64,000 nt of DNA, taken from Bdellovibrionota bacterium. GTDB lineage: Bacteria > Bdellovibrionota_C > UBA2361 > JAAYZI01. Shown here piece after piece: positions 10,845 to 39,597 of the stretch. Where the stretch lies: NCBI GenBank assembly GCA_050950765.1, contig JBMNIF010000002.1, forward strand, positions 1,088,001 to 1,152,000. The letters run 5' to 3'. The notes beneath the pieces were generated by a model. It was not told the DNA's origin. It was given only the letters and a program-made list of their open reading frames with translations, and made no database searches. Numbering within the stretch: the first letter of the stretch is position 1; each line of letters begins with the position of its first letter. A program made the position numbers and the translations under genes.

Positions 10845-12365
<1,521 letters not shown>

Positions 12366-13052
12366 TAAGGAGAGATGCGAAGATGTATTGACGAGAGTCG
12401 ATGTATTTTTGCACGCCCTAAGATATGCAAGAGGTTCAATTTGTGAATGACGATGGAGTCAATTTACTCTGAAGTGTGAATGAAGAGATCTCTTTGATCA
12501 CCTGCTACGCGAGTTGGCACGAGAGTTTTTGTTTAGATGGTGAGAGTTACAGTTTCTATCGATATCCGTTAGGGGGTATAACAATTAGGTAAGAGTAGAA
12601 GTGGTGATACTGCGTGTTGACCTTGTGGGAGTCGATGAGTCGGCTTTAGCGAGAGTTAACAACGAGGGCGAAAACACTATCAAGGTATTTTTTCGACCTG
12701 ATTCGGAATTTTTTCGAATAGTGCTTTAAGAAAAAAGTGCTTTAGGAAAAGTACATGATTTGGAGCTGTAAAAAGTTTTTCCGAGTCGGTATTTTTTCGA
12801 CGGGTGCATAAGGAAAAAAGTACGTAAGGAAAAAAATGTCTGATAGAGTTTTTAAGAAATGTAAAAAAGTTAAATGTAAACTAAATAATTGAAAGCCTGT
12901 TTATATGTTTTTTTTAGAACGTATGAACGGAGAAAGATTTCATTGAACCAATAGTAGAGTTTTTGCCGTTAATTATTTAGCGGTGAAGATTATGAATTTT
13001 CTCGAGCGCGACGAGTTCAGAGTAATCTGGAATCGGAGCTCATAAGATATCT

Positions 13053-16175
<3,123 letters not shown>

Positions 16176-16581
16176 TTTCTTTTCTTTTTTTAATTTAATT
16201 TAAAGAGGGAAGAATGAGTAAGATAATATAATGAGCGAAGATTGGTATTATGACTGATGATACCGTGCTGTGTTAATGTTTCACCTTTTAGAGGTTGGAA
16301 CGAGAGTAGCAAACGCAGTCACGTTATCAGCAGACATGTACTGCTAATCGCGTTCGAGAAAGTTTATAATGTAATGATGCTATTGGTAATGTTATTACGA
16401 GATAGTTTATGAAAGATAGTTTATGAAATATTTTATAGGATAATTTATTTATAAGATAATTATAAGGTACGTTTCTTAAGAGAGAGTTTTTGTTTTTGTT
16501 AGCAGTATCACAACTTTTACCTTGTTGTTTATTATTAGGTTATTTAAGGGGCTAGTTAGTTAGAGGCTAATTAAGCTAGGT

Positions 16582-17046
16582 AGAAAGTCACTGCGAAAGT
16601 AAGTGCACAGGAACTAGATACGTAGAGTGTGTATTTACTTTCTTGGTGACTATAGTGGAGAGGCGTTCCCATCCCGCAGGTTGTCTGCTATGTCAACTTG
16701 GCAGAGCCAAGATTGACATGACGCGCAAGGTGTTCGGGATGAGGTTTTGGTAGTTGGCAGGTTAGTTAAGAAAGTCACTGCGAAAGTAAGTGCACAAACT
16801 AGATACATAGAGGTGTATTTACTTTCTTGGTGACTATAGTGGAGAGGCGTTCCCATCCCGCAGGTTGTCTGCTATGTCAACTTGGCAGAGGCCAAGATTG
16901 ACATGACGCGCAGGTGTTCGGGATGAGGTTTTGGTAGTTGGCAGGTTAGTAAGAAAGTCACTGCGAAAGTAAGTGCACAAACTAGATACATAGAGGTGTA
17001 TTTACTTTCATGGTGACTATAGTGGAGAGGTTCCACCCGTTCCCAT
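16582..17046 (+). repeat. About 185-bp tandem repeat (2 full copies plus 1 partial) containing 5S rRNA 5' fragments
   Basis: Units start AGAAAGTCACTGCGAAAGTAAGTGCACA at 16582, 16769 and 16952; the third runs into the real 5S. Confidence 0.9.
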
Positions 17047-17118
17047 CCCGAACACGGTCGTTAAGCTCTCCTACGCCGATGATACTGGAACTACCGGGAA
17101 AGTAGGAAATTGCCAAGA
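17008..17118 (+). rRNA. rrf: 5S rRNA
   Basis: CCCGTTCCCATCCCGAACACGG..GTTAAG..CGCCGATGATACTG..GGGAAAGTAGG..TTGCCAAGA. Confidence 0.95.
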
Positions 17119-22404: not shown

Positions 22405-22478
22405 TGGCTCCACCTGGGCTCGAACCAGGGACCCACCGGTTATGAGCCGGTTGCTCTGACCAACTGAGCTATAGAGCC
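22405..22478 (-). tRNA. tRNA with CAT anticodon, probably tRNA-Ile2 (lysidine); CCA not encoded
   Basis: GGCTCTATAGCTCAGTTGGTCAGAGCAACCGGCT-CAT-AACCGGTGGGTCCCTGGTTCGAGCCCAGGTGGAGCCA; paired G1-C72 excludes the initiator; GGCTCATAACC arm resembles Ile2. Confidence 0.9.
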
Positions 22479-22855: not shown

Positions 22856-23581
22856 ATGAGTACACAACTTACAGAAACGATAAAAAAATTATTGGCAATA
22901 AGTAAAATAGATTCTTCCCTAGCAGGGATTGCTGCTCAAAAGAAGGGGCTTGAAGTACAATTAAAAGAGAAAAAAGAGGCACTTAATAGTGCCTCTTTTG
23001 ATCACGGTAAAAAATTATCTGAGTTTGAAAGTAAGCGTGATACTTACGCTAAAGAGGAGAAACGTTTAAAAGAACAACAGCAGAAACTTGTTGATAGACG
23101 CAAAGCACTAATTACTCTTGGGAGTTATAAATTGCAGATGGCAGCAGAACGGGAGATAGAGGCTTCTGCCAAACAGCTAGGTGCTCAAGAGGATCTCTTA
23201 TTAAAAGGGTTAGAGTCGTTGAGTGAGTTAGAGAGTGCTGCTAATGCCGCTCAGGAATTTTACAACACCGTAAAGAAAGATTTTGACGAATTCACAAAAG
23301 AGTGCCGAGCGACACTCGAAAATATGAAAAAACGCACTGCGGAATATGCTACCGAAAAAGCTGCTCTCATTCCTGATATTGAAGCACGAGATCTGGAAAC
23401 TTATAACAGAATTGCACAGAGGTATCCTATGGATCCTATTGTACCGTTAAAACAACTTTCTTGTGGTGGTTGTTGTCTTGAGCTGGGCCCTCAAGCGATG
23501 GTTGAACTATCACGCGCAAATTCCTTAGTCCGTTGCCGTGCTTGCGGTAGAATTTTATATATGGAAGAAGGTGAAGAGTAG
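22856..23581 (+). CDS. Coiled-coil protein with a C-terminal C4 zinc ribbon (DUF164/CT398-like)
   Basis: Long coiled coil, then CGGC...CRACGRILY. Confidence 0.85.
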   Translation: MSTQLTETIKKLLAISKIDSSLAGIAAQKKGLEVQLKEKKEALNSASFDHGKKLSEFESKRDTYAKEEKRLKEQQQKLVDRRKALITLGSYKLQMAAEREIEASAKQLGAQEDLLLKGLESLSELESAANAAQEFYNTVKKDFDEFTKECRATLENMKKRTAEYATEKAALIPDIEARDLETYNRIAQRYPMDPIVPLKQLSCGGCCLELGPQAMVELSRANSLVRCRACGRILYMEEGEE

Positions 23582-23619
23582 CTAGCGCTACCCACCAGCG
23601 CTAAAGCCAGTGCAAAAAA

Positions 23620-24655
23620 CTCTAAAATTACGATATCTAATAATATCAATATATTAGCAAAAGTTCAGAATTCGGCAGTTTTGGTGCCACCCACCAAGAA
23701 CAACTGAACGGGCTGCAACTGCAAAACGAAGTAGCTAGATCTGTACGGAAAAATTTGGTGCCACCCTTCAGTTAAAGGCGGGCAAAATTTGGTGCCACCC
23801 TTCTTTTTTTACCGCTTTGACGACTTAGGGTAAAAAATTTGGTGCCACCCTTTAGTAAAAGTGGGTGTCCTAATTGGCACCTAATAATATCAATATATTA
23901 GCAGAAGCTTAGAATTCGGTAGATCTGGTGCCACCCTTCAAGGACGATCGAACGGGCTGCAATGGAAACAGATCGGTTAGGTCTGTACGGAGGTCAAAAA
24001 TCTGAAAATCTGGTGCCACCCACCAGTGACGATCGAACGGGCTGCAATGGAAACAGATCGGTTAGGTCTGTACGGAGGTCAAAAATTTGGTGCCACCCTT
24101 CTTTTTTACCGCTTTGACGACTTGGGTGACTGGTAAATTTGGGGTAGATCTGGTGCCACCCACCAGTAAGACGGGTTCTGCTGACTTTGGCAGGGCTTGG
24201 ATCTGGCTTGGATCTGGTGCCACCCTTCTTTTTTACCGCTTTGACGACTTAGGCGACTGGACGAATTTGGTGCCACCCACTAAGAACAACTGAACGGGCT
24301 GCAACTGCAAAACGAAGTAGCTAGGTCTGTACGGAGGTCAAAAATTTGGTGCCACCCACTAAGAACAACTGAACGGGCTGCAACTGCAAAACGAAGTAGC
24401 TAGGTCTGTACGGAGGTCAAAAATTTGGTGCCACCCACTAAGAACAACTGAACGGGCTGCGACTGCAAAACGAAGTAGCTAGTTTTCTACGGAGGTCAAA
24501 AATTTGGTGCCACCCACTAAGAACAACTGAACGGGCTGCAACTGCAAAACGAAGTAGCTAGATCTGTACGGAGGTAAAAAATCTGGTGCCACCCTTCAAG
24601 GACGATCGAACGGGCTGAAACACTACGGAGGTCAAAAGTGGGTGTCCTAATTGGA
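23620..24655 (-). repeat. Mosaic repeat array 1, 14 copies of core TGGTGCCACCC on the + strand
   Basis: Cores at 23682, 23756, 23790, 23840, 23926, 24011, 24088, 24151, 24215, 24268, 24347, 24426, 24505 and 24584; the last five have an exact 79-bp period; lies between convergent genes. Confidence 0.95.
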
Positions 24656-24667
24656 AATTTGGTTTTT

Positions 24668-25750
24668 TTAGCGGATAAAGAGTAAATTTATTATAAAAAG
24701 TGCGATTACACCGATTGCAGCGGGGATTATAATATCCCAAGGGATCTTGTTTTTCTGTTTTTTTCTCCGCCTTTTACCTTTCTTTGTAGTGCTATTGTCG
24801 TCAGTTACTTGCAGCGGTGTTTCTGAAACTTGCGCTTCTAACTTCTTACCCTGAACATCTTTCTGAAGTGAGGATGCGTTTTTTAAAGTCAGTGCTTTTG
24901 CCACCCCCTCTGTGCTTGGTTTAGCTGGAGCTTCATCTTGTAGTCTCAAACTCTCTATCTCAAGATCCTTTTTTTCCTCAAAATCTAGGTGCTCCTCCTC
25001 TATCTCAAAATTCTTTTTCCCCTTAAAATCTAAGTGACCATCTTCCACCAATCCAAGATCTTCTGTCTCCTCGAAACTTAAGCGATCCTCTTCCACCAAT
25101 CCAAGTTCTTCTCTCTCTTTGAAATCCAAAAGATCCTTTTCGGAGGTTGTTTCAGAAACTGTGTCTTCTGAAATTTTATCAGACTCTTCCTTAATACCCT
25201 GTTCCGCATCCAAGAACTCAAACATCAGATCTGGCTCAGTAGAAGATGGTTCTAAGCTCTTCTCAGAGATGACATCCTCTTCTATCGGTTCATTTTTTAT
25301 GGCTTCTTCTAATAATTTACTTAAATCCTCTTCTTCTAACCAATGTGATAAACACGACGTTTTTGCTTGACTCTCTACCTCTGTGTTTGGTGTGACTGGT
25401 GTTAAAGGTTCATCTTTTTCTTCTTCAAATTCAAATGAGATCTCTTCCATCTCTTCCGTTAGAAGATCTTCTTTAAGATCTTCTTGTAAATTACCAATCT
25501 CCTCATTTTGCTCAAAGTAGCGCAGGTCAGTAATGGCTCCCGCCGCATTTAATAGCGCTTGAGCTGTAAAAATCTCCGTTTCTGACTCTGATTGGATGAT
25601 TTTTGAGGGGGGAGCCTCTAAAATTTGCAAAATATTGTCAACAGATAGCCCCAAATCTGCGATAAAGACAGACTTAACCTTTCTTAAGGTGTCTGCGTCA
25701 TCGTTTTGTAGCCCTGAGAATATAAGTTCGATCTTTGTTGCGTTTGTCAT
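24668..25750 (-). CDS. Acidic hypothetical protein with a C-terminal membrane anchor
   Basis: Glu/Asp-rich middle with LGLVE/LDF repeats, a basic patch, then a hydrophobic C-terminus. Confidence 0.7.
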   Translation of the reverse strand: MTNATKIELIFSGLQNDDADTLRKVKSVFIADLGLSVDNILQILEAPPSKIIQSESETEIFTAQALLNAAGAITDLRYFEQNEEIGNLQEDLKEDLLTEEMEEISFEFEEEKDEPLTPVTPNTEVESQAKTSCLSHWLEEEDLSKLLEEAIKNEPIEEDVISEKSLEPSSTEPDLMFEFLDAEQGIKEESDKISEDTVSETTSEKDLLDFKEREELGLVEEDRLSFEETEDLGLVEDGHLDFKGKKNFEIEEEHLDFEEKKDLEIESLRLQDEAPAKPSTEGVAKALTLKNASSLQKDVQGKKLEAQVSETPLQVTDDNSTTKKGKRRRKKQKNKIPWDIIIPAAIGVIALFIINLLFIR

Positions 25751-25886
25751 AAGTAGCGTTCATTTCAATAGTATTATTGATTACTGTCGTTAGAGAGATA
25801 GATGCTAATTTTTGTCAGAGAGGTACATAAAAAAGACGGACACCTTAATATATAACTATTTTTTTGTTTAATAGGTTGCTTTTACT

Positions 25887-26990
25887 ATGAATAATATTGA
25901 AATTGACGAAGCGGTTGTGGCTGTTTTAGCGTTGGATCTCTCCTCTTCCGAAAGAGAACATTATCGGGAATTGTTAAAAGATCTCTCAAGTCCAGCTGAA
26001 CTCTTAACTAAAAAAGATCTCAGTGAAACTTTATCGAAGTTACAACATAATCTTAACTCATCAGAAATTATAACAAAAACGAGAGAGGATATCTTACGGT
26101 GGCAAAGAGAAGGGATAAATATTGTCGCTCTTGGAACTCCTGCCTATCCGAGAAAGTTATCATTTATCCATGATGCGCCACTTGCGCTCTTTTATAAGGG
26201 GGAGCTCCCCAAAAGCCTTAATGAAGGCTCCACTTTGGCTGTGGTCGGATCTAGAAAGGCTGACTTAACCATCTGTAAATACGCTTACGATCTGGCAAGA
26301 AGCGCAGCAGAGATCGGTCTGTGCGTTATTAGTGGACTCGCTTACGGAATCGATGCGCGCGCTCATCACGGGGCTTTAGATTCAAAGGTAGCAGCCGCAA
26401 CCGTAGCGGTACTTGGTAGCGGTTTAAAACACCTCTATCCTGCCATTCATAGAGATCTGGCAAAGCGGATTATCGATAATGGCGGTGCACTTATTAGCCA
26501 ATTCTTGCCGGATGTTTCTCCATTACCTCCTAACTTTCTCAATAGAAATAGGATCATCGCGGGACTCTCTGATGGTGTTTTAGTGATTCAAGCCGGTGAA
26601 AGGTCAGGCTCTCTCTCAACGGCACGCTATGCTATGGAAGAGGGGAGAGATGTTCTGGTTTGCCCTGGTGCTTACGGGGATAAACGGTTTGCTGGATCTC
26701 ACCGTTTGATTAAACAGGGAGCTTACTTGGTTTCTGAGTTTGATGATATCGCTGCTATCTTCCCTGAAATGGCGAAAAATGTAGCCGCACTTAATGAGGA
26801 GGTAGGTAGTGCAGAGGGAGTCTCTAGTGATACAGCGGAGATCCTTGCTCTACTAAAAGACGGCCCCCTCGAGATAGAGTATCTACTTGATAAATTACCA
26901 GATTTATTAAACCCGCAACAAAAACTCTTAGAGTTAGAATTATCTGAAAAAATTATCTGTTTACCGGGTAATAAAATCGCTAAAGCGTAA
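25887..26990 (+). CDS. dprA: DNA-processing protein DprA
   Basis: YP..L..I.DAP, AVVGSR, ISGLAYGID..AH, NF..RNRIIAGLS, SGSL.TA..A.E.GR. Confidence 0.95.
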   Translation: MNNIEIDEAVVAVLALDLSSSEREHYRELLKDLSSPAELLTKKDLSETLSKLQHNLNSSEIITKTREDILRWQREGINIVALGTPAYPRKLSFIHDAPLALFYKGELPKSLNEGSTLAVVGSRKADLTICKYAYDLARSAAEIGLCVISGLAYGIDARAHHGALDSKVAAATVAVLGSGLKHLYPAIHRDLAKRIIDNGGALISQFLPDVSPLPPNFLNRNRIIAGLSDGVLVIQAGERSGSLSTARYAMEEGRDVLVCPGAYGDKRFAGSHRLIKQGAYLVSEFDDIAAIFPEMAKNVAALNEEVGSAEGVSSDTAEILALLKDGPLEIEYLLDKLPDLLNPQQKLLELELSEKIICLPGNKIAKA

Positions 26991-26996
26991 AGCTTA

Positions 26997-28220
26997 TTAA
27001 AATGTACTGAACCCACTTGAAGTTTGCGGATTTTTTCTTTGCAGCTTCATCCGTTCAATATCAAGAGCTTTCTTTTTGTTGCGCCAACTTGTGACGCAAG
27101 CCGGAGTAAAGTCTCCATAGCGGGCACAAGTTGCAGCAGGAATTTGCTTTGAAAAACTCTTGGCATCATCAATAGCTTTTTGGCATGTGGTGGTAAGTAA
27201 TCTGATGCGCCAAGTCGGTCGTTGCTCCTTCTTAGAAGCTACTTCCGTTTGCTTCCTATTTTTGGTGTTAAACGGATCGTGCCCTTTGTAACGATCTAAT
27301 CTGGTTGGTGTCGGGGTTGGGGATGGTTGCGGTGTGCGAACTGTCAATTCTTTAAGAAGATTATTTAACTTCGGATCTTTTAACTTGTTAGATTTTTTGT
27401 AAGCTATATTTTTTTCTGGCGCTGGTTCCTGATGCACAATTTTTGTTAGTGAAGTATTGCACTGGAGTGCAATAAGATCGGAGTGTTGTTTCTCTATCTG
27501 GCGGCGTACCTTGATAAGCTCATTAAACCCTGCTTTGTTCGCTTTTAATTCTCGATATTGCTTTATTGAGTCTATAATCTGGTTGTTTAGCGTGGGGATG
27601 TCCTGTTCTAACATCTGTGCTTTGATCTTGGTTGTAAGAGCTAAATCTTCCGGATCTATCTTCTCTAAATCAAGTACATCAATATATTGGTTGCTATAAG
27701 CACTTTTACACTCTTCCGAATCTATGCCGTGTTTCGCACATGGGATAATAGGGGAGCCTTGAAAGATCTCTTCAAGTTTAGAGAGGTATTCTAAACATTT
27801 GGGATGTGTCGGATTCCCCTCATATTGAAGCGTTTTGAAAAGATACGGCATGCAATACAGTTCAGAAAGTTTTTCGTAGATGACAGTTAATTTATCATCA
27901 ATAAGCTCTTGATCTGTTGTGGAGCCGAGACCTCTTCTCGAAAGAAGCATATCTGCCATAAGTTGATAATAATCAACTCGCATCTTTTGTCTTTGTGAAA
28001 AATTGATCGTTTCAACAACAGGGGACGGCGTAACGGTAGGAGACGGCGTAACGGTAACGGTAGGAAGTTGCGCTTCTGATAAAAGAACCCTCGTCGGAAA
28101 TATCGCAGCTAAAAACGAAACGATAAAAAAACTCTTTTTCAGATTAAAAAAAGTGGCAGCACTCTTATTGCAAGACAACAGATCGGCTAAAAATGAGATG
28201 ATGAAGAAGTTCTTTTTCAT
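26997..28220 (-). CDS. Hypothetical exported protein, Cys- and Pro/Thr-rich, with a duplicated N-terminus
   Basis: 407-aa ORF; KKNFFIISFLA and KKSFFIVSFLA 26 residues apart; PTVTPSP linkers. Confidence 0.65.
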   Translation of the reverse strand: MKKNFFIISFLADLLSCNKSAATFFNLKKSFFIVSFLAAIFPTRVLLSEAQLPTVTVTPSPTVTPSPVVETINFSQRQKMRVDYYQLMADMLLSRRGLGSTTDQELIDDKLTVIYEKLSELYCMPYLFKTLQYEGNPTHPKCLEYLSKLEEIFQGSPIIPCAKHGIDSEECKSAYSNQYIDVLDLEKIDPEDLALTTKIKAQMLEQDIPTLNNQIIDSIKQYRELKANKAGFNELIKVRRQIEKQHSDLIALQCNTSLTKIVHQEPAPEKNIAYKKSNKLKDPKLNNLLKELTVRTPQPSPTPTPTRLDRYKGHDPFNTKNRKQTEVASKKEQRPTWRIRLLTTTCQKAIDDAKSFSKQIPAATCARYGDFTPACVTSWRNKKKALDIERMKLQRKNPQTSSGFSTF

Positions 28221-28466
28221 AAGCGTAAATTAAAAGATACCGTTCACTTGGTACAAACGAGAGAGAAACCTGCATATACTAAAGATTCTCACAGATGAGG
28301 TAAAGTTTCGTCAATCTGCAGTTTTTATCAATAATTTTGGTCAATTAATAATTAAAAAATTGGACTAAGAAAATTTACTACATTGAAAGAGTATAAATAT
28401 TTGAAGCAGTTATTACTTCTTAAGAGATTGTCTATTAACAGCAACTAGTTTTTTGGGGAGGCTGTT

Positions 28467-29441
28467 ATGTTTAAAAAACTTGGCATAGTACATAAATGGA
28501 TTAAAACATGGGGGGCTCTTCCAGTTTGGAGCTGGGTTAGAGCAGCCGAGTACTATGAGAAAAAAGATTTTAGACACGCTTCTGAACTTTATAAAAAAGG
28601 GTTAGAAACTCATTTAAACCACCCTGCCGGAGTGTGTGCGGCAATCGATCTGGCGAATTGTTTTTTAAAATTAAATAGGTTGGAAGATGCTGAAAGTATC
28701 TTGGTTGAGACACTTTCTAAAAATCCGAATCAGAAAGAGGTCGCTTTAAGGTTAATAAAAATTTATGACCGAAGTGGTAATTATGTTAAATCCTCTTTAA
28801 TCTGGCGTGATATAGTTAAACGATATCCTAATAACCCTGACTATGTGGCACGCTTTATCTTAGGTGTACTTGAAAATGGTGGCCCGTCCGCTCTTTTGCA
28901 AGAGGCGGTTTTAGCGTTGTTAGCGCTAGATCCTAAGCTACTTAGTTGCCCGTTAATAGAGGTTGCTAGAGCAGCTCTGATTGTTCAAAAGAGAGATCCG
29001 AAAAGGGGGCGTGCCGTTCTAGCGGTTATTGCAGGGCGCGAAAACGCACCATTCGAAAGCTATCTTTGGTTTGCTCGAGCTTTATTGAAAGAGGGTAGCG
29101 CTAGGCAGGCGCGTGAGTGGCTTACTAAAGCCTTAGAGTTAAAAAGCAATCATCCAGAAGTGTTGAGTTTATTGGCACAGACCTACCTTTTTACCAGTAA
29201 AGAATATGAACCTGAGTTTGCAGTTCAATTGGCTACAAGCGCTTGTCAAAATTCAAATTGGTTAAATCCGTTACAGATGCACACATTGGCGCAAGCTTTT
29301 TATCAGGTAGGGGATAGGATGTCGGCACTCTTAGTTGCCAGCAAGGCCAAAGAGGTAGGGAGACGGCGCTTCGGTGTATTTAAAGATGCAGATAATATTG
29401 ATCGCTTGATAGAGGAGCTCTCATCCGGAACTTTAGCATAA
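28467..29441 (+). CDS. TPR-repeat protein
   Basis: TPR-like helices such as LANCFLKLNRLEDAESIL and AREWLTKALELKSNHPEVLSLLAQ; GGAGG RBS. Confidence 0.8.
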   Translation: MFKKLGIVHKWIKTWGALPVWSWVRAAEYYEKKDFRHASELYKKGLETHLNHPAGVCAAIDLANCFLKLNRLEDAESILVETLSKNPNQKEVALRLIKIYDRSGNYVKSSLIWRDIVKRYPNNPDYVARFILGVLENGGPSALLQEAVLALLALDPKLLSCPLIEVARAALIVQKRDPKRGRAVLAVIAGRENAPFESYLWFARALLKEGSARQAREWLTKALELKSNHPEVLSLLAQTYLFTSKEYEPEFAVQLATSACQNSNWLNPLQMHTLAQAFYQVGDRMSALLVASKAKEVGRRRFGVFKDADNIDRLIEELSSGTLA

Positions 29442-29469
29442 GGTTCGAGCTCTACTTAATCGTGTGTAG

Positions 29470-29817
29470 CTACAAGCTTAAAAACCTATCAAGAGCGTTT
29501 TCAACTTTTGCTTCCGTTAGTGGTTGGGTTAAAAAGATCCCATCTCTGTTTTGGGGGATCTGAGATGAAATCACTAAACAACGTTGCTTAGCTTCTTGAG
29601 AAAGGTGTTTATAATACTGTAATTCTGTAATAATCTTCTCTGATTCTGTTAACTGTTCAATTCGTTCGATCGTATTTGTTTCAACTTCGCGAGTTTGTAA
29701 AAGTTGAGAGAATAGAAAAGTAACCGTCTTATCTGAAAAAAGGATTGCTACCTTCTGATAATTACTACTCTTCACTGCAAGGGATAATAAAGTTTTGTCA
29801 GACATCTTTTTTTTCAT
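29470..29817 (-). CDS. Hypothetical protein, possibly a degenerate receiver-like domain
   Basis: 115 aa; C-terminal FLTQPLTEAKVENAL resembles the receiver FLxKP..L motif but lacks the Lys. Confidence 0.4.
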   Translation of the reverse strand: MKKKMSDKTLLSLAVKSSNYQKVAILFSDKTVTFLFSQLLQTREVETNTIERIEQLTESEKIITELQYYKHLSQEAKQRCLVISSQIPQNRDGIFLTQPLTEAKVENALDRFLSL

Positions 29818-30040
29818 GACTTCATTAGATGTTGCGTTTTTTAGATTAGATCTAAAAAGATGGTTCTTTTTTTGTTAGTATTATTGAGATGTTATTCATT
29901 TTTTAGGTATAATCTGCGGGATTGTGCGCAGATAAATCAGGTTCAGAAAGGTATTGGATGAATTAGTACGTAATTCTGCTTTTATGTGGTATGTTTTTCT
30001 GCAGGTGTGGAAGGGCGTACGGTAAAGAAGAGGGCGGCGC

Positions 30041-31534
30041 ATGCTAAAGAAAAGTTGGAAATTGATATCTCAATTGGAGAAGATCGGTGATTTTTTAATC
30101 GCCATTATAGCGTTTTTCTTGGCGTATTATGGACGTGCCTCTTTTGTATTTTGGAATGAGGTGTGTGAGTGGGGGCTCCCTTTTGCTGGAGAATCTTTGG
30201 CACCTATTAGCGATTATGTACTTGTTATCTTAATCGCGCTTTTTACCCAAACTGTTGTGCTGAATATCATGGGTGCATACAGCAGTATGCGTCTTAGAAG
30301 TTCGCTGCAAGTACTGTGGATGTTTGTTGTTAATTCAATAGCGGTTTTTTTTACACTGGCTGCTGCGTCGTTTTTACTAAAATTGGATTTTAGCCGTAGC
30401 TTTATTGCTTTATTCGCTATCCTCTTGCTTCTGATGTTGGCTGCTGAACGGTATGTGGTCTTATGGCTATTAAGGTTTTTCAGAAGGCGGGGCTTTAATT
30501 ATAGGAATGTTGTAATTTGCGGAACGGGTAAACAAGCTCTGATCTTAACTGCTAGAATTACAGCGAAACCGGAGTTGGGGTTAATGATTCGTTCTTATGC
30601 TGATTTAAGTATCGATGCTGAGCAGCGATCTAAAAACATTCACCGCTTTAAGCAGGAGCTAAAGCTTATACCTAAAACAAGAACGGTACGCGTGGTCGAG
30701 GGTGTGGCTGATTTAGAGAAAGTCCTCTCTGATTGCGCTATTGATGAAGTTATCTTTACCGATACCTTGTACGTGATGCCGCAAGTTAGAGATGTTGTAC
30801 AACTTTGCGCAGAGCAAGGTATTCGTACCACGATCGCCGCAGATCTCTTTAGTACAGGGCTGGTGAAGTCAGGGCTCAGTTACTTTGAAGGGATCCCATT
30901 AGTTCACTTTGTAACCCCTCCAGGAGATATGTGGGAGTTAACACTTAAGCGTTGTCTCGATATCGTTGTTTCAGCGCTACTCTTGGTGCTTCTGATGCCG
31001 TTCCTTATCCTTGTGGGGATCATAATTAAGTTAACCTCACCTGGTCCGATCTTGTATGTGCAAAAGAGGGTAGGTTTGAACGGGCACCAATTCGATCTTT
31101 ATAAATTCAGATCGATGTATGTTGATGCTGATAAACGCCTTCCCGACTTAATGGCACAAAATGAGATGTCGGGACCTGCCTTTAAGATGAAGAACGATCC
31201 ACGTGTTACCCCTGTTGGGAAGTGGCTTAGACGGTACAGCATCGACGAGTTGCCGCAGCTGTGGAACGTTCTGATAGGTGATATGAGTTTAGTTGGACCC
31301 CGTCCACCCGTTCCAGGGGAGGTGCGTGCTTATGAAAGACGGTACCGCCGCAGACTTTCAATGCGACCAGGGATGACGTGTACGTGGCAAGTTAGTGGGC
31401 GTAACGACATCACTGATTTCAGTAAGTGGGTTCAGTTGGATCTCGAATATATAGATAATTGGTCGTTAACGAAGGATCTCTCCCTACTTTTTCGCACGAT
31501 CCCTGCCGTTCTCTTTGGGCAAGGGGCGCATTAA
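30041..31534 (+). CDS. Polyprenyl-phosphate glycosylphosphotransferase (WcaJ/CpsE family priming GT)
   Basis: N-terminal TMs, [48 protein letters not shown]. Confidence 0.93.
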
Positions 31535-31591
31535 GGTGCGGCTAACTGAAGGGTAGGAATATCATATAGTTATGAAACGGTAAAAAAATGC

Positions 31592-31619
31592 TCAACTTCG
31601 GCAGATCTACTGTCGATAA
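31592..31619 (+). promoter_or_regulatory. Candidate sigma28 (FliA)-type promoter
   Basis: TCAA-N16-GTCGATAA versus consensus TAAA-N15/16-GCCGATAA. Confidence 0.35.
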
Positions 31620-31667
31620 CTGTATTCAAGTAGCTATGTGTGTGGGCAATTAAGGAAGGTTGCCAAG

Positions 31668-31985
31668 ATGACTATTCGTGTAATTCATGAATCCGTGAGG
31701 GGGAGCCCTCAAGTTGATATCGTCAAGAAAAATATATCGAGAGAACAGCCTAAGGTTCAATCTCAAAGTGGTGCTGTATCTACGCAGCCACCGTTGGAGA
31801 GTGGCTCTCGTTCAGGTGTTGTTGCATTAGCGGCATCATCTACTCCGCATAATTCCGGCAGTGTAAAAACTTATAAAGAAGCAAAAGAAACTGCCAAAGA
31901 TATTGCAGAGAGGGTCTTGTATGAAGGTGAAGGCTTGAACGCACACAGAGATGTTTTAACTTCAGCAAAAGAGTATATCGTATAG
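31668..31985 (+). CDS. Small hypothetical protein, possibly flagellum-related
   Basis: AAGGAAGG RBS; low-complexity N-half and helical C-half. Confidence 0.55.
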   Translation: MTIRVIHESVRGSPQVDIVKKNISREQPKVQSQSGAVSTQPPLESGSRSGVVALAASSTPHNSGSVKTYKEAKETAKDIAERVLYEGEGLNAHRDVLTSAKEYIV

Positions 31986-32011
31986 TAAGGCACGGGAGTC
32001 GGAGGTGTTCA

Positions 32012-32195
32012 TCTCTGAACATTTTTTTCCTATCTTCCCTAGTCGAGACAGTTTTTTTAAAAGATAAATTGCTTTAAAAAAATTTCTAACTTTCTCTGAA
32101 CATTTTTTTCCTAACTTCCCTAGTCGAGACAGTTTTTTTAAAAAGATGAACTGCTTTAAAAAAACTTATAATTTTTTCTGAACATTTTTTTCCTA
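32012..32195. repeat. About 81-bp AT-rich tandem repeat, roughly 2.3 copies
   Basis: Units containing CTGAACATTTTTTTCCTA start at 32012, 32093 and 32175; the first two continue CTTCCCTAGTCGAGACAG. Confidence 0.85.
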
Positions 32196-32213
32196 CCTCT
32201 CTAATTCGGAAAG

Positions 32214-33899
32214 TTATAACCCATCATTTCGTCTAATGGCCCACCAGCCGCGTAGTAAGCTGATAGCACCACAGAAGATAAAAAAGTATCCTAAAATTTG
32301 TTTAAGTCCATCCGTCTGCATTGTGAATAAAAGTCCGATAGAGACGAAAAATATCCCTAACACAATAACTAATACTCTGTTTAACATCCGATTTTGATGA
32401 GTTTTTATAGTAGAGAAGTTTTTCACTACTGTTTGAAAGGTAGTTTCTCCACGCGAGAGGTTGGATAGGATCTCACGTGCATTGTACGGAAACTCTATTG
32501 TTAAATGTTTATAGGATTCAAGGGTGTTGTCTAGAGTTTCTAAACGCAACTTCGGATCTGAAAATGTTTTAAAGTATTGTCGAGTAATATACGGCTTTAG
32601 CACGGAAACAGGATCGAACTCTGGAGATAACACCGTAGCCATCGCCTCAAGTAAGGTGATCGACTTTACAATCATAAGGATATCTGCCGGTGGTTTGATG
32701 CCGTAACGGCGTACTACATCAAAGATCTCTGTAAGTAGCATTGAGAAATTTAGTGATGCCAACGTCTTCCCGATATATGCGTCAAGAATAGCAGTAATCT
32801 GAACACGCACAGAGGCTTCATCAAAGACAGGCGGTGTCATCCTGTTCTCGCGCATAATATGCAAGATCTTTTCGGGATTTTTTGAAAGTGTGGCTGCTAA
32901 AAGTGCAAGGATGGTGCGCATACGTTCTTTATCAAGTCGCCCCATTTCACCAAAGTCTATTAGTGCAAGTTTCTGATCAGTAGTGATAATGATATTTCCA
33001 GGATGTGGGTCTGCATGAAAGAAGCGGTGTTTAAAAATAGAATCCAAGATAACACTTGCTAACGTTTCTACTAATTCATCTGCATTTGAAGGGATCTCTC
33101 CTGTCTTGCAAAGGTCTGTTACTTTTGTGCCGTTTATAAATTCCTGCGTTATGATAAGTCTACTGCACAGTTCAGGGTACGTTTTCGGCACAACGAGGAT
33201 ATCTTGCAGGCGGTGTTGAGAGGCAAAGATAGTCATGTTCTGAGCCTCTTTGATAAAATCGCAGCCTTGCTTCAAGGTGCGGTGAAACTCTTCGATTATT
33301 AACGGCAGGTCAAACGACTCCATCTCTGGATATGCCTCTTCGAATAGAGAAACCAACCCTTTTACAATCTCCATGTCGGTATCGATTAGACGTTCTATAT
33401 CTGGACGCTGAATCTTTACTACGACGGTGCTACCGTCAATTAGTGTTGCTTTATGTACTTGAGCGATACTTCCAGCAGCAAGAGGCGTTTTTGAAAAATC
33501 TGAAAATAGTACATTTATAGGGGTGTGGAACTCTTCTTCAATTGTAGCGATCGCTACCTCCGACGGGAAGGGAGCGACTTTATCTTGTAACTTTCTAAAT
33601 TCTTCAATGATGTTACGAGGGAAAACATCGGGACGAGTTGCAATAAGTTGTCCCATCTTTATAAAGGTCGGACCCAAATCTTCACAGACTAGGCGTAGGC
33701 GAGTGGCGACATCTAGAACTTGTTTATCGGTGTCGTGTCGGATTGATGGCTTTACTATTTTTAATGTTTTCCCGTAAGCTACATTAAGGCGGTTAACAAG
33801 GTCCCCAAAACCGTGGCGAACTAGCACCGCCATTATTTCACTAACTCTGTGAACGTTTCTGAAAAATTGGGGAAGCTTTATAACTTTTGCGTAATCCAT
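32214..33899 (-). CDS. ubiB: ABC1/UbiB-family atypical kinase
   Basis: LGPTFIKMGQ, LAAGSIAQVH, VVVKIQRP, FFHADPHPGN, LIDFG; C-terminal TMs. Confidence 0.9.
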   Translation of the reverse strand: MDYAKVIKLPQFFRNVHRVSEIMAVLVRHGFGDLVNRLNVAYGKTLKIVKPSIRHDTDKQVLDVATRLRLVCEDLGPTFIKMGQLIATRPDVFPRNIIEEFRKLQDKVAPFPSEVAIATIEEEFHTPINVLFSDFSKTPLAAGSIAQVHKATLIDGSTVVVKIQRPDIERLIDTDMEIVKGLVSLFEEAYPEMESFDLPLIIEEFHRTLKQGCDFIKEAQNMTIFASQHRLQDILVVPKTYPELCSRLIITQEFINGTKVTDLCKTGEIPSNADELVETLASVILDSIFKHRFFHADPHPGNIIITTDQKLALIDFGEMGRLDKERMRTILALLAATLSKNPEKILHIMRENRMTPPVFDEASVRVQITAILDAYIGKTLASLNFSMLLTEIFDVVRRYGIKPPADILMIVKSITLLEAMATVLSPEFDPVSVLKPYITRQYFKTFSDPKLRLETLDNTLESYKHLTIEFPYNAREILSNLSRGETTFQTVVKNFSTIKTHQNRMLNRVLVIVLGIFFVSIGLLFTMQTDGLKQILGYFFIFCGAISLLRGWWAIRRNDGL

Positions 33900-34145
33900 A
33901 CAATTAATGTGTCTTGAATGTGATAAGTGGAGGGGAAAAACGATAATATTTCTCTTGTTAATCGTTAATCTTATGAAAAGTTGCTGAAAGTGTCACTATA
34001 AAACAGACAATTACTTGAAAATATTATTTAAAAATGGCATTCTCAAGCTCGTTCGTCAGTCCATTTATAAAACACGTTACTGTATTCAAAAGGGCATAAA
34101 GATGCCGTTTTTTTCTGTTTTGTGTTTTTAATGGTGGCGATTCTA

Positions 34146-34173
34146 TTGACGTTTTATGGAATTATGCTATTGT
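34146..34173 (+). promoter_or_regulatory. Candidate rplM-rpsI promoter
   Basis: TTGACG-N16-TATTGT with extended TG. Confidence 0.5.
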
Positions 34174-34208
34174 TCGCCTCCGTTCATAGAGGACTAAGAA
34201 GAGGTATA

Positions 34209-34670
34209 ATGGATACAGTTTTTATTTCAAAAAAGCAGGCGGCCGAGAATAAGAAGTGGCGTATTGTTGATGCTGCCGGTGTGCCGCTCGGGAGATTGGC
34301 GAGTGAAGTAGCGGTACTTATTCGTGGTAAGAATAAGGTAGATTATACTCCAAATCAGGATATAGGAGATTTTGTTATCGTTATTAACGCTGAAAAGGTA
34401 GCTTTGACCGGTAATAAGATATCACAGAAGGTCTATCACCGTCATACTGGTTACATAGGGGGACTACGTACGACGAGTGTTGAGGAGATGCTTGATAAAT
34501 ACCCTGAACGTGTTATCCAGAAAGCAGTATATGGAATGTTGCCGCGAGGACCGTTGGGTAATACTATGCGTACAAGGCTGAAGGTTTATGCCGGAAGTGA
34601 ACATCCGCATAAGGCGCAACTTCCGGAACTTTATACTTTACAAAGTCAGGCACAAGGTCAAGCTAAATAG
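34209..34670 (+). CDS. rplM: 50S ribosomal protein L13
   Basis: W.IVDA...LGRLASEVA..RGK.K..YTP..D.GD ... GMLP ... HPH.AQ; GAGG RBS. Confidence 0.98.
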   Translation: MDTVFISKKQAAENKKWRIVDAAGVPLGRLASEVAVLIRGKNKVDYTPNQDIGDFVIVINAEKVALTGNKISQKVYHRHTGYIGGLRTTSVEEMLDKYPERVIQKAVYGMLPRGPLGNTMRTRLKVYAGSEHPHKAQLPELYTLQSQAQGQAK

Positions 34671-34691
34671 TAATTTTTGTAGGATTTTAAG

Positions 34692-35084
34692 ATGAGAGGC
34701 TGGGATTCATTTGCAGTAGGAAAAAGAAAAACGTCAGTGGCTCGTGTGTTTCTTAAGAAGGGAACAGGGCAGATTACGGTCAATGGGAAACCTTATGATC
34801 AATATTTTGGTCGTGAGACTTTGAAGATGGTTGTTAAACAACCGTTGGAGTTGACTGGTAAAAATGAAGATCTCGATATTAATGTTAATGTTTGTGGTGG
34901 TGGGAAATCCGGACAGGCCGGTGCTACCAGACACGGCATTGCGCGTGCTTTAAATGTTCTTGATGAGACGATGCGTGGACCTCTTAAAAAAGCAGGCTTC
35001 CTATCTCGTGATCAACGTGCTGTCGAGCGTAAAAAATACGGTAGGCATAAAGCTCGTAAGCGTCCGCAGTTTTCAAAGCGTTAG
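34692..35084 (+). CDS. rpsI: 30S ribosomal protein S9
   Basis: [10 protein letters not shown] ... [17 protein letters not shown] ... ERKKYG..KARK.PQFSKR. Confidence 0.98.
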
Positions 35085-35103
35085 TTGCATATATTGCAGC
35101 TGC

Positions 35104-35138
35104 AAAAAAGAGGGGGCTGTTTGGTGCCCCCTTTTTTT
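35104..35138 (+). terminator. Terminator after rpsI, possibly bidirectional
   Basis: AAAAAAGAGGGGGC-loop-GCCCCCTTTTTTT. Confidence 0.8.
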
Positions 35139-35154
35139 ATCTAAATTAAAGCTA

Positions 35155-37235
35155 GCCCTGAAGGGTGGCACCAGAGCCGCCGAATTCTAAACTTATGCTA
35201 ACGTCTTGATATCATTAGCAGTACTGGTGGGTGGCACCAAATTTTTGATCTCCCTGAAGGGTTGTACCAGATTCAGCCTAGCCAAAACCGTGCAGATCCC
35301 GTCTCGCTGGTGGGTGGCACCAAATTCTCCAGTCGCCTAAGTCGTCAAAGCGGTAAAAAAGAAGGGTGGCACCAGAGCCGCCGCCAAAATCGCCGAATTC
35401 TAAACTTTTGCTAATATATTGATATTATTAGGTGCCAATTAGGACACCCACTTTTTACCTTCGTAGAACTGGTGGGTGGCACCAAATTTTTGACCTCCGT
35501 ACAGATCTAACCGATTCGGTTTTGCAGTTGCAGCCCGTCCGATCGTCCCTGAAGGGTGGCACCAAATTTTTGACCTTCGTCGAAATCTAACCGATTCGGT
35601 TTTGTAGTTGCACCCGTTCAATCGTCCTTGGTGGGTGGCACCAAATTTTTGACCTCCGTACAGATCTAGCTACTTCGTTTTGCAGTTGCACCCGTTCAAT
35701 CGTCCCTGAAGGGTGGCACCAAATTTTTGACCTTCGTCGAAATCTAACCGATTCGGTTTTGTAGTTGCACCCGTTCAATCGTCCTTGGTGGGTGGCACCA
35801 AATTTACCAGTCGCCTAAGTCGTCAAAGCGGTAAAAAAGAAGGGTGGCACCAAATTCACCAGTCGCTTAAGCCGTCAAAGCGGCAAAAAAGAAGGGTGGC
35901 ACCAGATTTTTCTGTTTTGCAGTTACACCCGTCCTGCTGTCCCTGAAGGGTGGCACCAAATTTTTGCCAAATTTTTGACCTTCGTCGAAATCTAACCGAT
36001 TCGGTTTTGTAGTTGCACCCGTTCAATCGTCCTTGGTGGGTGGCACCAAATTTACCAGTCGCCTAAGTCGTCAAAGCGGTAAAAAAGAAGGGTGGCACCA
36101 AATTCACCAGTCGCTTAAGCCGTCAAAGCGGCAAAAAAGAAGGGTGGCACCAGATTTTTCTGTTTTGCAGTTACACCCGTCCTGCTGTCCCTGAAGGGTG
36201 GCACCAAATTTTTGACCTCCGTACAGATCTAGCTACTTCGTTTTGCAGTTGCAGCCCGTCCTGCTGTCCCTGAAGGGTGGCACCAAATTTTTGACCTTCG
36301 TCGAAACCTAACCGATTCGGTTTTGCAGTTGCACCCGTTCAATCGTCCTTGGTGGGTGGCACCAAATTCACCAGTCGCTTAAGCTGTCAAAGCGGCAAAA
36401 AAGAAGGGTGGCACCAGATTTTTCTGTCGTCGAAATCTAACCGATTCGGTTTTGTAGTTGCACCCGTTCAATCCAGATTTTTCTGTTTTGCAGTTGCAGC
36501 CCGTCCTGCTGTCCCTGAAGGGTGGCACCAGAGCCGCCGCCAAAACTGCCGAATTTAAGCTTTTGCTAACATCTTGATATCATTAGCAGTACTGGTGGGT
36601 GGCACCAAATTTTTGACCTCCGTACAGATCTAGCTACTTCGTTTTACAGTTGCAGCCCGTCCTGTTGTCCCTGAAGGGTGGCACCAAATTTTTGACCTCC
36701 GTACAGATCTAGCTACTTCGTTTTACAGTTGCAGCCCGTTCAATCGTCCTTGGTGGGTGGCACCAAATTTTTAACCTCCGTACAGATCTAGCCGATTCGA
36801 TCCGCAAGTTGCAGCCCGTTCAATCGTCCTTGGTGGGTGGCACCAAATTTTTAACCCCCGTCCAGACCTAGCTAGTTCTGTCTTCAGTCGCAGCCCGTCC
36901 TGCTGTCCCTGAAGGGTGGCACCAGATCTGCCAAATTCTATGCTTCTGCTAACATACTGATATTATTAGAAGTTGTAATTTTAGAGAAATCTAGCTGAAC
37001 CCGTCTTACTGGTGGGTGGCACCAGATTTTTAACCTCCGTACAGATCTAGCCGATTCGATCCGCAAGTTGCAGCCCGTTCAATCGTCCTTGGTGGGTGGC
37101 ACCAAATTCGTCCAGTCGCCTAAGTCGTCAAAGCGGTAAAAAAGAAGGGTGGCACCAAATTTTTGACCTTCGTCGAAATCTAACCGATTCGGTTTTGCAG
37201 TTGCACCCGTTCAATTGTCCTTGGTGGGTGGGTGC
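35155..37235 (+). repeat. Mosaic repeat array 2, 28 perfect copies of GGGTGGCACCA plus 2 degenerate copies
   Basis: Cores from 35163 to 37147 with recurrent 52, 54 and 78-80 bp spacings; same modules as array 1 in the opposite orientation; lies between convergent rpsI and lptG. Confidence 0.97.
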
Positions 37236-37237
37236 TT

Positions 37238-38332
37238 TTATTCTGGGGATTCTGCGCCGATGTTGAGGATAAGGGCGACTACTAACATTAAAATATTGCC
37301 GACCCAAGCTGCCAAGAGGGGGGGCCAGATCTCAGCTCGCCCCATAGCAAGGCTAAAGGAATGAACAGCGTAATAGGTAAAACTAACAAGAAGTCCAGCT
37401 ATAAAACTAATCGCCATATTCCCCGTCCTGCTAGGTTTTAGGGAAAAGGGGAGCACTACCAAAGCAGAGATCAAAATTACAAACGGAAATGCCGCCTTCG
37501 AATATAGATCAGTCAGATATCCGTTAGCCGCCAAGCCGTTGGCGATCTGTTTTTCAATGAATGCTTTTAGTTGAAAATAACTCATTGTAAACGGATCCGT
37601 CTCAACATTGTAAAAATCTTGCGGCCTATCTTGAATCGGAAGTGGTAGAGATCTTTCATGTATGGCGAGAGGAGCTTCGTTATCAGAAAGAAACTTGTAA
37701 CGAATAACATCAAACATCGTCCAGCCTAAACCGTCTTTAACAAATACAGCACGGTCTGCATCAGTTCTAACCCTCGGATAAAAATTGTCGTCAACTTCAA
37801 AGAGGGTCGGGCTGTGCAAGGTGTTGTTTCTGGAGTCAAACATTGCGATAGAATAAAATTTATTCCCTTCACGTAACCAAAAATCATCCTGACTAAAGGT
37901 TCCCGTTTTGTGCTTCTCCTTAATATCAATATTGTAGATCTCTCGCACTCGTCTGGTACAGTGCGGCACTAAAGTTTCACTAACAATCAGATCAATGATA
38001 CTCAATCCGAATGCTAAGATAAAAATAGGCTTTGCGATCCAAAAGACCTTCATACCTGAAGCGCGCATGGCTGTAATCTCAGAGTTCTTTGCTAATAAGC
38101 CGATCCCCAACATAACGGCAACGATCATTGCTAGCGGTAAGGTCAAGGTAAAGATTTGCGGAATTTTTAGAAGGAAATACTGCATTACGATAAATATTGA
38201 AGCATCTTCTCCGATGATGTTGTCAATACGATCAAAAAAATCGACAACAAGAAAAAGGGTGCACAACGCAATAGATGCTATGATTAAGTAATGGACTACC
38301 TCTTTAAATACGTAACGTTGGATTATAGTCAT
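37238..38332 (-). CDS. lptG: LPS export ABC transporter permease LptG
   Basis: IIQRYVFKE, NSEITAMRASG, periplasmic domain, PPLLAAW..N; ATGA overlap with lptF. Confidence 0.9.
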   Translation of the reverse strand: MTIIQRYVFKEVVHYLIIASIALCTLFLVVDFFDRIDNIIGEDASIFIVMQYFLLKIPQIFTLTLPLAMIVAVMLGIGLLAKNSEITAMRASGMKVFWIAKPIFILAFGLSIIDLIVSETLVPHCTRRVREIYNIDIKEKHKTGTFSQDDFWLREGNKFYSIAMFDSRNNTLHSPTLFEVDDNFYPRVRTDADRAVFVKDGLGWTMFDVIRYKFLSDNEAPLAIHERSLPLPIQDRPQDFYNVETDPFTMSYFQLKAFIEKQIANGLAANGYLTDLYSKAAFPFVILISALVVLPFSLKPSRTGNMAISFIAGLLVSFTYYAVHSFSLAMGRAEIWPPLLAAWVGNILMLVVALILNIGAESPE

Positions 38333-39597
38333 CGCACCTCTTTCCTTACCTTGCGCATAACTTTCTTTGTCACGGGTAATAAAAGACCTTCCACTCCCTC
38401 TGCAATGGATTGCCACCGTTCACTACCCATCTGCTTTAATAGATAGAAAGTAAATACCGCAATAACAAGGTTCGGCATCCATAAGGCGATTAAGGGATGA
38501 ATCGAGCCGGACTCCGCCAAAGCCACCCCAATTGATATAAAAGCATAATACAAAATAAAAACGATCATGGCGATGGCGATAGAGAGAGAGGCTCCCCAAG
38601 CTCGCTGCATCCGTGGCGGTTGAATACCTAACGGCATCGCAATTAAAGCTAATAAAAATGCTGCAAAAGGCATGCTTACTCTACGCCCGTCCTCTATTTT
38701 ACTACGTAAAAATGTTTTCTTTAACTCTTCAAACTCCAGTAACGTTGCCTCATCTTTTTCTTCAACCTCTGATATCTCTATAAGTTTCGTTTGTAATGAA
38801 GTGATATACTCGGTTAACTCCGCAGATCCCATCTCACGGTATAACTTTGAAGACTTCTTCTTCGCATCGGGATTATAAATTTCGTCCGGATCTAACGATA
38901 ATCTATTTGTCGTGAACTTCGTTAAATTATACCGCCCTCGATATTCTTCATGGATAATACCGTCATACAACTCCATAGTAATTGTACGCGCTTTTTCATC
39001 AGATAAAATTGTGCCGCTCTGCGCAAATATAATCTGTCTCCGCTCCGGATCACGTTTGTCATCAATTAAGGCGTGGGACAAAGCACCTGTTTGATGATTT
39101 ACAGAATCAGCATAAAGAATAATTTCACCGAGCTTATTAAACATTCCAGCTTCCAGCCCAGCCGTACTCTTACTACGTGCTATCTCAAAAAGGGTTTGTG
39201 AAAGTTGCCTATACCCCCAAGGACGTAACTCAGAAGTGATCCCAAAACATAAAATTGTACAAAGGATGGCAAAGACAAAAACAGGTTTAATCATCTGAGT
39301 TAAACTAACGCCACTCGCTCTTAAAACTACGATCTCAGAATCAGCAGAAAGTCTACCAAACGCCATTAAGACTCCCAGTAGGGCAGACATCGGTAATGCG
39401 ATCTCTAAAAAAGTCGGAATTACAGCTAAAAACACCATCCCGATCTGCTCTATCTGCACACCTTTGTTTACGATTAAATTTGTGAAACGCAAAATGCGAG
39501 CAACTAGGATAAGTGCAGTGAATGCAAAAAGACTGACTAAGAAATAAGAGAGAGATTCAGAAAAAATATAGCGATTTATCGTTTTAACTATTCTCAC
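38329..39597 (-). CDS. lptF: LPS export ABC transporter permease LptF (GTG start)
   Basis: INRYIFSE, GRLSADSEIVVLRASGVS, G.FN, LIAMPLG, ALWMPN. Confidence 0.9.
   Translation of the reverse strand: MRIVKTINRYIFSESLSYFLVSLFAFTALILVARILRFTNLIVNKGVQIEQIGMVFLAVIPTFLEIALPMSALLGVLMAFGRLSADSEIVVLRASGVSLTQMIKPVFVFAILCTILCFGITSELRPWGYRQLSQTLFEIARSKSTAGLEAGMFNKLGEIILYADSVNHQTGALSHALIDDKRDPERRQIIFAQSGTILSDEKARTITMELYDGIIHEEYRGRYNLTKFTTNRLSLDPDEIYNPDAKKKSSKLYREMGSAELTEYITSLQTKLIEISEVEEKDEATLLEFEELKKTFLRSKIEDGRRVSMPFAAFLLALIAMPLGIQPPRMQRAWGASLSIAIAMIVFILYYAFISIGVALAESGSIHPLIALWMPNLVIAVFTFYLLKQMGSERWQSIAEGVEGLLLPVTKKVMRKVRKEVR

Follow-up and report, generated by a model that had tools for sequence, protein, structure and literature searches.

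Head-to-tail arrays of an 11-bp core in a Bdellovibrionota genome and their probable origin from a six-copy Y1/HUH gene

Two intergenic arrays built on an invariant 11-bp core lie in a 64,000-nucleotide stretch of Bdellovibrionota bacterium DNA (hereafter the window; positions 1,088,001 to 1,152,000 of contig JBMNIF010000002.1, assembly GCA_050950765.1), and they raise the question of how such arrays are written. The question is a general one: how repeats of the repetitive extragenic palindromic (REP), bacterial interspersed mosaic element (BIME) and terminal inverted repeat (TIR) types multiply is open, and dissemination has been called poorly understood (PMC8266576; this and the other papers are cited for the available parts of their text). 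We write the core as GGGTGGCA^CCA, base 9 being the first C and the mark standing at the A8/C9 bond. The evidence presented below, all of it drawn from sequence, argues that the arrays are head-to-tail stacks of this core, probably written by a Y1/HUH enzyme with six gene copies in the genome, through repeated rounds in which the motif is nicked, copied by host-primed synthesis and resealed.

The arrays themselves were first considered. Array 1 (window positions 23583..24662, minus strand) contains 14 exact cores in direct repeat, located by the window search between 23682 and 24594, with a degenerate terminal core at 23583-23593 and modules of 34-86 bp; four near-identical 79-bp A modules follow one another in tandem at 24271..24586 (minus strand). 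Array 2 (35153..37231, plus strand) contains 28 exact cores in direct repeat (35163-37157 by the same search) and modules of 52-114 bp. Shuffled sequences give 0.36 exact cores by chance for the window, and one further match with one mismatch is unrelated to the arrays. The 14 and 28 invariant cores are thus present as an earlier note on this DNA had claimed. Its mosaic of reusable modules is also found in our module table (A, 77-80 bp; B, 50-53 bp; C, 54 bp; D, AT-rich), where the module order differs between the two arrays and halves of A are swapped.

The core is by no means confined to these two loci. The genome (2.64 Mb in 5 contigs, to which coordinates beginning with G000 refer) contains 943 copies in 123 clusters, compared to 20 expected under a fifth-order Markov model, and 939 of them are intergenic, as suits the genome-wide non-coding repeat family that had been proposed. 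Multi-core runs cover 62,234 bp, and repeats of the core system occupy at least 62 kb, or 2.4% of the genome. Most clusters are single-strand direct arrays with core periods of 21-316 bp, in which spacers are reused and module types recur between distant arrays. The arrays show no replication-strand bias (62:51, p 0.35), and no plasmid copy was matched in 72,556 records. Tandem arrays of module A with a degenerate core or none were also observed (G000:C1:77165-77789, C3:149326-149840, C2:794033-794417 and C2:438803-439135); these core-poor arrays are possibly an older layer. As to the hairpins announced for the core, the GGTG-G-CACC palindrome is there, with a loop of 1 base; the TTGGT hairpin reaches about -5 kcal/mol, which is not above shuffles (z -1.35), and TGGT precedes only about 214 of the 943 cores. 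More generally, 36-nt folds of the core do not surpass those of shuffles (z from -0.2 to -1.35).

Cores occupy 50 of the 322 convergent gaps, 59 of the 1276 co-directional gaps and 16 of the 331 divergent gaps, so that the enrichment between convergent genes, which the earlier note had wanted checked, is clear (odds ratio 3.75, p 1.5e-10). Such a bias might be expected of regulatory elements selected by the host at gene 3' ends, either terminators or mRNA stabilisers, and array 2 does contain 16 terminator-like matches compared to 3.1 in shuffles. We nevertheless regard this explanation as very improbable: tolerance of insertions between convergent genes accounts equally well for the bias, core hairpins are not stronger than shuffles, and the abundance is limited to this genome, the highest count among 60 relatives of the order being 37 exact cores.

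A candidate for the writing enzyme was found outside the window, as the same note had anticipated. It is a 322-aa Y1/HUH protein, whose gene is present in six copies, each with an outward-pointing core at both ends. In each unit a reverse core stands about 176 bases before the open reading frame (ORF), a forward core follows 46-47 bases on, and the next forward core comes 1345-1346 bases later; the outermost cores of 6/6 copies point their 3' ends outward and constitute a terminal inverted repeat. The units are 97.8-99.3% identical and their neighbours differ among the six copies, from which we infer that the gene was copied recently. Inspection by eye revealed no consistent direct target duplication around the six copies, and the head-to-head end junction of an excised circle occurs 0 times in the genome. 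The protein matches PF01797 above the cut-off and scores 67 bits against NF047646 (cut-off 80); it carries the motifs NHFH (HFH), YxxxNP (as YIYINP) and SS, with 37 residues from H63 to W100. Its predicted structure (pLDDT 87.6) matches TnpA-REP 4ER8 (Z 13.5, root-mean-square deviation 2.9, 155 aligned). For its C-terminal part the full-length model gave no clear fold match among the matches listed, and a search of the tail for helix-turn-helix (HTH) families returned none in 17/17 aligned members at E 0.05.

A footprint in the arrays at base 9 of the core is a likely trace of the putative enzyme. Among 856 core contexts, local repeats start 40 times at base 9, 12 times at base 8 and 14 times at base 10, the other offsets having 0-13 each. 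To perfect tandem duplications of at least 8 bp, 51 in all over 108 arrays, a start at base 9 can be assigned in 28 cases compared to 3.1 expected (shorter ones were left out of the count because they are mostly 6-mers inherited within module A). The signal is sharpest for duplications free of microhomology, 17 of 31 of which (16 distinct) start at base 9, with 0.33 expected. Sharp duplications that include a base 9 number 29, and in about 27 of them the end lies 8-17 bases beyond it, with a mode of 11. The largest of the base-9 duplications lies in the window: a perfect 248-bp tandem duplication in array 2 (35719..36214, plus strand; copies 35719-35966 and 35967-36214). Its first base is base 9 of the core at 35711, and there is no microhomology; it takes in three complete cores and the greater part of another, and stops 11 bases beyond the last base 9. 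In array 1, a perfect 11-bp tandem duplication (24196..24217, minus strand) has a possible start at base 9, and a perfect 8-bp one (23997..24012, minus strand) starts at base 10 and is an exception to the rule. Duplications of 30 bp and 248 bp have a common start, some others begin far upstream of the core, and the junctions of core-to-core 79-mers are widely ambiguous. A guide rule with GTGG and a cut between the two Cs (PMC8266576) does not fit, as duplications in which match and period are equally long put the start at base 9 and not at base 10.

These observations suggest the following scheme, whose nick-prime-reseal chemistry follows amplification model B of PMC3333891. The putative enzyme would bind the motif and work at two points, the A8/C9 bond and a position roughly one helical turn further out. 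Nicking would leave a 3'-OH and a 5' end bound to the enzyme tyrosine; a host polymerase would extend the 3'-OH and displace the tyrosine-bound strand, and the new 3'-OH could then attack the tyrosine bond, giving a perfect tandem copy that needs no microhomology. Short extensions would produce stubs of 8-14 bp, runs across at least one core would add modules, as in the 248-bp copy, and runs starting upstream of the core would duplicate the core itself. The same product would arise from a nick at A8/C9 with an extension of about one turn, or from a nick on the opposite strand about 11 bases out with inward copying that halts, or is cut, at base 9. The latter may also account for the upstream-starting duplications that copy the core, for example partial 3' copies of the gene, and we favour it because both classes of duplications share the outer end. 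Host recombination between cores probably adds shuffling.

The duplication lengths gathering at 8-14 with a mode of 11, here and in relatives, could also be read as footprints resembling target duplications, left by fill-in after a staggered cut, one strand being cut at A8/C9 and the other some 11 bases further out. This is hardly probable, since the 30-bp and 248-bp duplications begin identically, others begin far upstream of the core, and the Y1 enzymes studied work on single strands (PMC8266576).

The mechanism put forward in the earlier note was a cut-and-rejoin at the core. In its explicit form, modules would leave as circles running from core to core and enter other cores through site-specific exchange, a cassette shuffling of the kind proposed for Neisseria dRS3/NIME arrays. 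Modelled switches of source along the arrays can be confronted with it, bearing in mind that the count is noisy and that many zero-homology switches are allele or homopolymer noise: 42 of 326 span a whole core and 74 touch one, and 252 miss the cores. Junctions at the core are therefore a minority (42-74/326) and leave the idea standing in part, the sharp signal being instead the duplications from base 9. The gene does lie between direct cores 1345-1346 bp apart and module types are shared by distant arrays, as shuffling would have it, but in all six gene copies an inverted core lies outside this direct pair, the 5' edges of arrays seldom start at base 9, and the stubs of 8-14 bp are left unaccounted for. 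Cassette shuffling as the main process is in our opinion improbable.

We then return to nicking and copying by the six-copy enzyme, which is further supported by the distribution of cores around its genes. This was examined on 1897 of 1929 gaps, those abutting a gene copy and the contig devoid of a gene copy being excluded. Occupancy is 15/36 at less than 5 kb from a gene copy, 8/40 at 5-10 kb, 11/73 at 10-20 kb and 3-6% beyond. Within 20 kb, 34 gaps are occupied, compared to 15.3 +/- 4.4 in random occupied-gap controls, of which 0/5000 reach 34. The spread is also polar: cores directed away from and toward the gene number 30:7 within 30 kb (25:6 if the first 3 kb are removed), 39:35 beyond, and 88:86 around control centres; for the individual gene copies the ratios are 4:1, 5:1, 4:3, 7:1, 5:1 and 5:0. 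Such local and polar spread suggests that the putative enzyme acts in cis. In a copying model 39 of 108 arrays have their best donor no further than 15 kb away, with 2.4 expected, although split arrays inflate the nearest distance bin, and the two arrays of the window are mutually first or second donor.

The mainly local donors would also agree with a passive expansion, in which the part of the element ended with seeding the motif, and polymerase slippage and homologous recombination of the host then enlarged and rearranged the arrays. The ambiguous junctions of the core-to-core 79-mers, the degenerate module A arrays that exist without an exact core, and the presence of cores without an enzyme match in one relative (G019) point the same way. 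Slippage, however, requires microhomology, and 17 duplications without any share one start base; nor does passive growth predict the polarity away from gene copies. We consider it an unlikely explanation.

Relatives were then searched for the same organization. Of 73 genomes of the order, the present one counted, 58 have the enzyme family. It has 457 clusters at an E value of 1e-30 or better, and those closest in the Atlas mostly carry the label Myxococcota, which rests on few records. Inverted ends of at least 11 bp were found at 23 of 67 homologous loci, compared to 2 in 150 mismatched pairs. At 15 of these 23 loci both arms finish in an outward CCA, CCG or CTA, with a differing inner sequence. 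Sharp duplications at 38 homologous loci cover the outward C in 17 of 55 cases; these tip duplications mostly end 9-15 bases past the C (about 11/17, at 11 loci), with a peak at 11. Genome G025 has two homologues with the identical core at both ends. In G019 (L042-L044) the cores are accompanied by runs of short repeats starting with CCAG. A broader proposition may tentatively be made, although we would not give it even chances: that HUH transposases which are still mobile read a short unfolded motif, nick at a CCA defined by the protein and write tandem duplications directionally in cis, producing polar arrays tens of kb outward from every gene copy, widely in the order and apparently in myxobacteria-like lineages too.

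The assembly was compared to seven sequencing runs, whose labels read bioreactor, digester, wastewater or simply metagenome. Array-internal pieces at another locus are identical (0 differences) in X1 and X5, which excludes an assembly artefact for the core family, although one of the runs may be the source sample. Contigs of X9, X10 and X12, from three other studies and about 1% divergent, continue beyond rpsI and enter array 2 at its first core. The runs therefore contain the family at another locus, and the independent ones support array 2 of the window up to its first core. The X9 and X12 strains have 22 extra bases after 35155, similar to the start of module B, just before this core. Depth of the enzyme contig (L035:9451-10748) is about 5, 2.6, 4 and 6 times that of the flanks across runs, depth not being copy number.

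Several results weigh against the proposed writing by the six-copy enzyme. In the footprint, 23 of 51 duplications have a start other than base 9. The 5' edges of arrays are heterogeneous (8/91 map to source offsets 6-9) and no fixed 5' edge was found, so that the scheme does not cover how new gaps are seeded. One gene copy is nearly apolar (4:3), the arrays of the window lie more than 60 kb from the nearest gene copy, and the gene boundaries behind the intergenic and gap counts are our own gene calls. In relatives, the peak of duplication starts lies one base earlier, with scatter toward the inside, and the simple outward-versus-inward comparison (21 vs 10 of 94, p 0.06) is not significant. 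G019 has its 37 exact cores and no Y1 match by three queries, its genome being 92% complete. Finally, among the matches listed no empty site was seen at G000:C2:1177000-1190900 (4 runs) or at window positions 24520-35330 (4 runs), a weak test as short-read contigs break in repeats, and no strain lacking the gene was seen at the one copy examined.

Is the system already known? The earlier note had not recognised its kind, and on this point it does not stand: TIRtrons, Y1 genes between terminal inverted repeats with dispersed repeat families, have been described (PMC3733652), though, in the available text, without this family, its abundance or its footprint. The likeness lies in a Y1/HUH gene between inverted non-REP repeats with dispersed copies in dimers and clusters. 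The sequence GGGGWSAS reported for some TIRs, not all, is matched at 6/8 positions by the core read inward and fully by the homologous locus L009. TIRYT has been tentatively equated with TnpA-Y1 subclass 2.1 (PMC6006769), whose motifs NH[YF]H, YxxxNP and SS are present in our protein; its C-terminal HTH (Bac_DnaA_C, HTH_23, HTH_28) was not found in the 322-aa family. Other differences from TIRtrons are the protein length (322 aa compared to a median of 238), six near-identical copies instead of a mean of 1.9 at 49% identity, and 943 repeats with kilobase direct arrays instead of 'moderately abundant' families; a duplication footprint and polarity such as those seen here are not described for TIRtrons in the available parts of PMC3733652 and PMC6006769. 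Subclass 2.3 differs by its 55-aa core insertion and YVDLNP, compared to the 37 residues from H63 to W100 and YIYINP. We file the element as TIRtron-like and assign it to no named subclass.

REPtrons and their TnpA-REP (RAYT) enzymes have the same fold (4ER8), a fitting nick-prime-reseal amplification model (PMC3333891) and a precedent in Marinomonas for repeats near the gene (PMC3333891, PMC8266576, 10.1101/119735), and REP and BIME are likewise intergenic mosaics with a bias to convergent gaps. The core is nonetheless not a canonical REP, as had been said, with no stable hairpin, a direct orientation and a gene that multiplies. There is no GT[AG]G foot with a stable hairpin behind it, GTGG being inside the core; BIME alternate in orientation whereas these arrays are direct; and the REPtron gene is domesticated and non-duplicating, compared to six copies here. 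Moreover, the inferred site is CCA-like across relatives while the inner repeat varies, which argues against guide-selected cleavage. IS200/IS605 elements (TnpA subclass 1.1) share the HUH/Y1 fold and multiple near-identical copies, but have YxxxQ in a short core-only protein and subterminal hairpins, in contrast to YxxxNP, twice the length and short inverted ends here, with arrays devoid of replichore bias. Neisseria NIME arrays are similarly long and intergenic, with a short constant motif and reusable 50-150-bp spacer families; the constant motif there, dRS3, is palindromic, 20 bp long and associated with a phage recombinase, whereas the present 11-mer has an orientation and forms the end of an HUH element (PMC1797815). 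CRISPR have a constant repeat of 24-48 bp and unique, evenly sized spacers, compared to an 11-bp core, uneven periods and reused spacers. In the open-access literature we found no description of the core family, the base-9 footprint or the polar spread, though supplements may list related elements; the names TIRYT and TIRtron occur there in two works, and of 194 papers containing the core letters the 25 listed had unrelated titles.

TIRYT biochemistry, including binding and cleavage of the TIR by the enzyme, has been proposed as future work (PMC3733652). For this purpose the genome offers a defined in vitro substrate and readout: the nick is predicted to single-base precision, products of about 11 bases and up to 248 are predicted, and the spread has a direction. 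It also contains a RAYT-like gene that apparently still copies itself. If the broader proposition on still-mobile HUH transposases is true, it would add a distinct mode of amplification and a compact enzyme that writes duplications.

A second Y1 gene, subclass-2.3-like and carrying YVDLNP, is present in single copy at G000:C1:418176-419291 (L114). It is flanked by the inverted motif GGGTGTCC, which clusters around it and has 221 genome copies, of which 153 lie no more than 200 bp from a core. Three copies are in the arrays of the window (24640..24647 and 23863-23870, plus strand; 35442-35449, minus strand). The motif stands at the end of module A opposite the core, which indicates that the arrays mix two systems. 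No peak of duplication starts was found at it (206 contexts).

Both arrays occupy nearly the whole of a convergent gap, reaching almost to the stop codon or terminator on either side, in agreement with the earlier description. Array 1 lies between a C4 zinc-ribbon/CT398-like coiled-coil gene (22856..23581, plus strand) and a 360-aa gene with no Pfam match (24668..25750, minus strand), and array 2 between rpsI (ribosomal protein S9; 34692..35084, plus strand) and an LptF/LptG permease gene (37238..38416, minus strand), 6 bp short of whose stop codon it terminates in a truncated core. The hairpin at 35111..35132, directly before array 2, belongs to the rpsI terminator region and is a host feature outside the array. 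An Rfam scan gave no match in the arrays and found only rRNA and tRNA: one rRNA operon (16S, 23S, 5S) at 10845-17118, preceded by a plus-strand ORF block, and a tRNA at 22405-22478. An ORF at 45761-46753 encodes four copies of a repeat of about 22 aa in its N-terminus. Elsewhere in the genome, a 350-kb stretch at a GC-skew switch (G000:C2 ~460000-810000), distant from every enzyme copy, has one core. A 1582-bp insertion sequence with a 479-aa transposase, presumably IS1634-like, is present in five copies, beside cores at two sites and inside core arrays at two more (G000:C2:1182083-1183664, that is L035:5084-6665, and C2:811831-813412).

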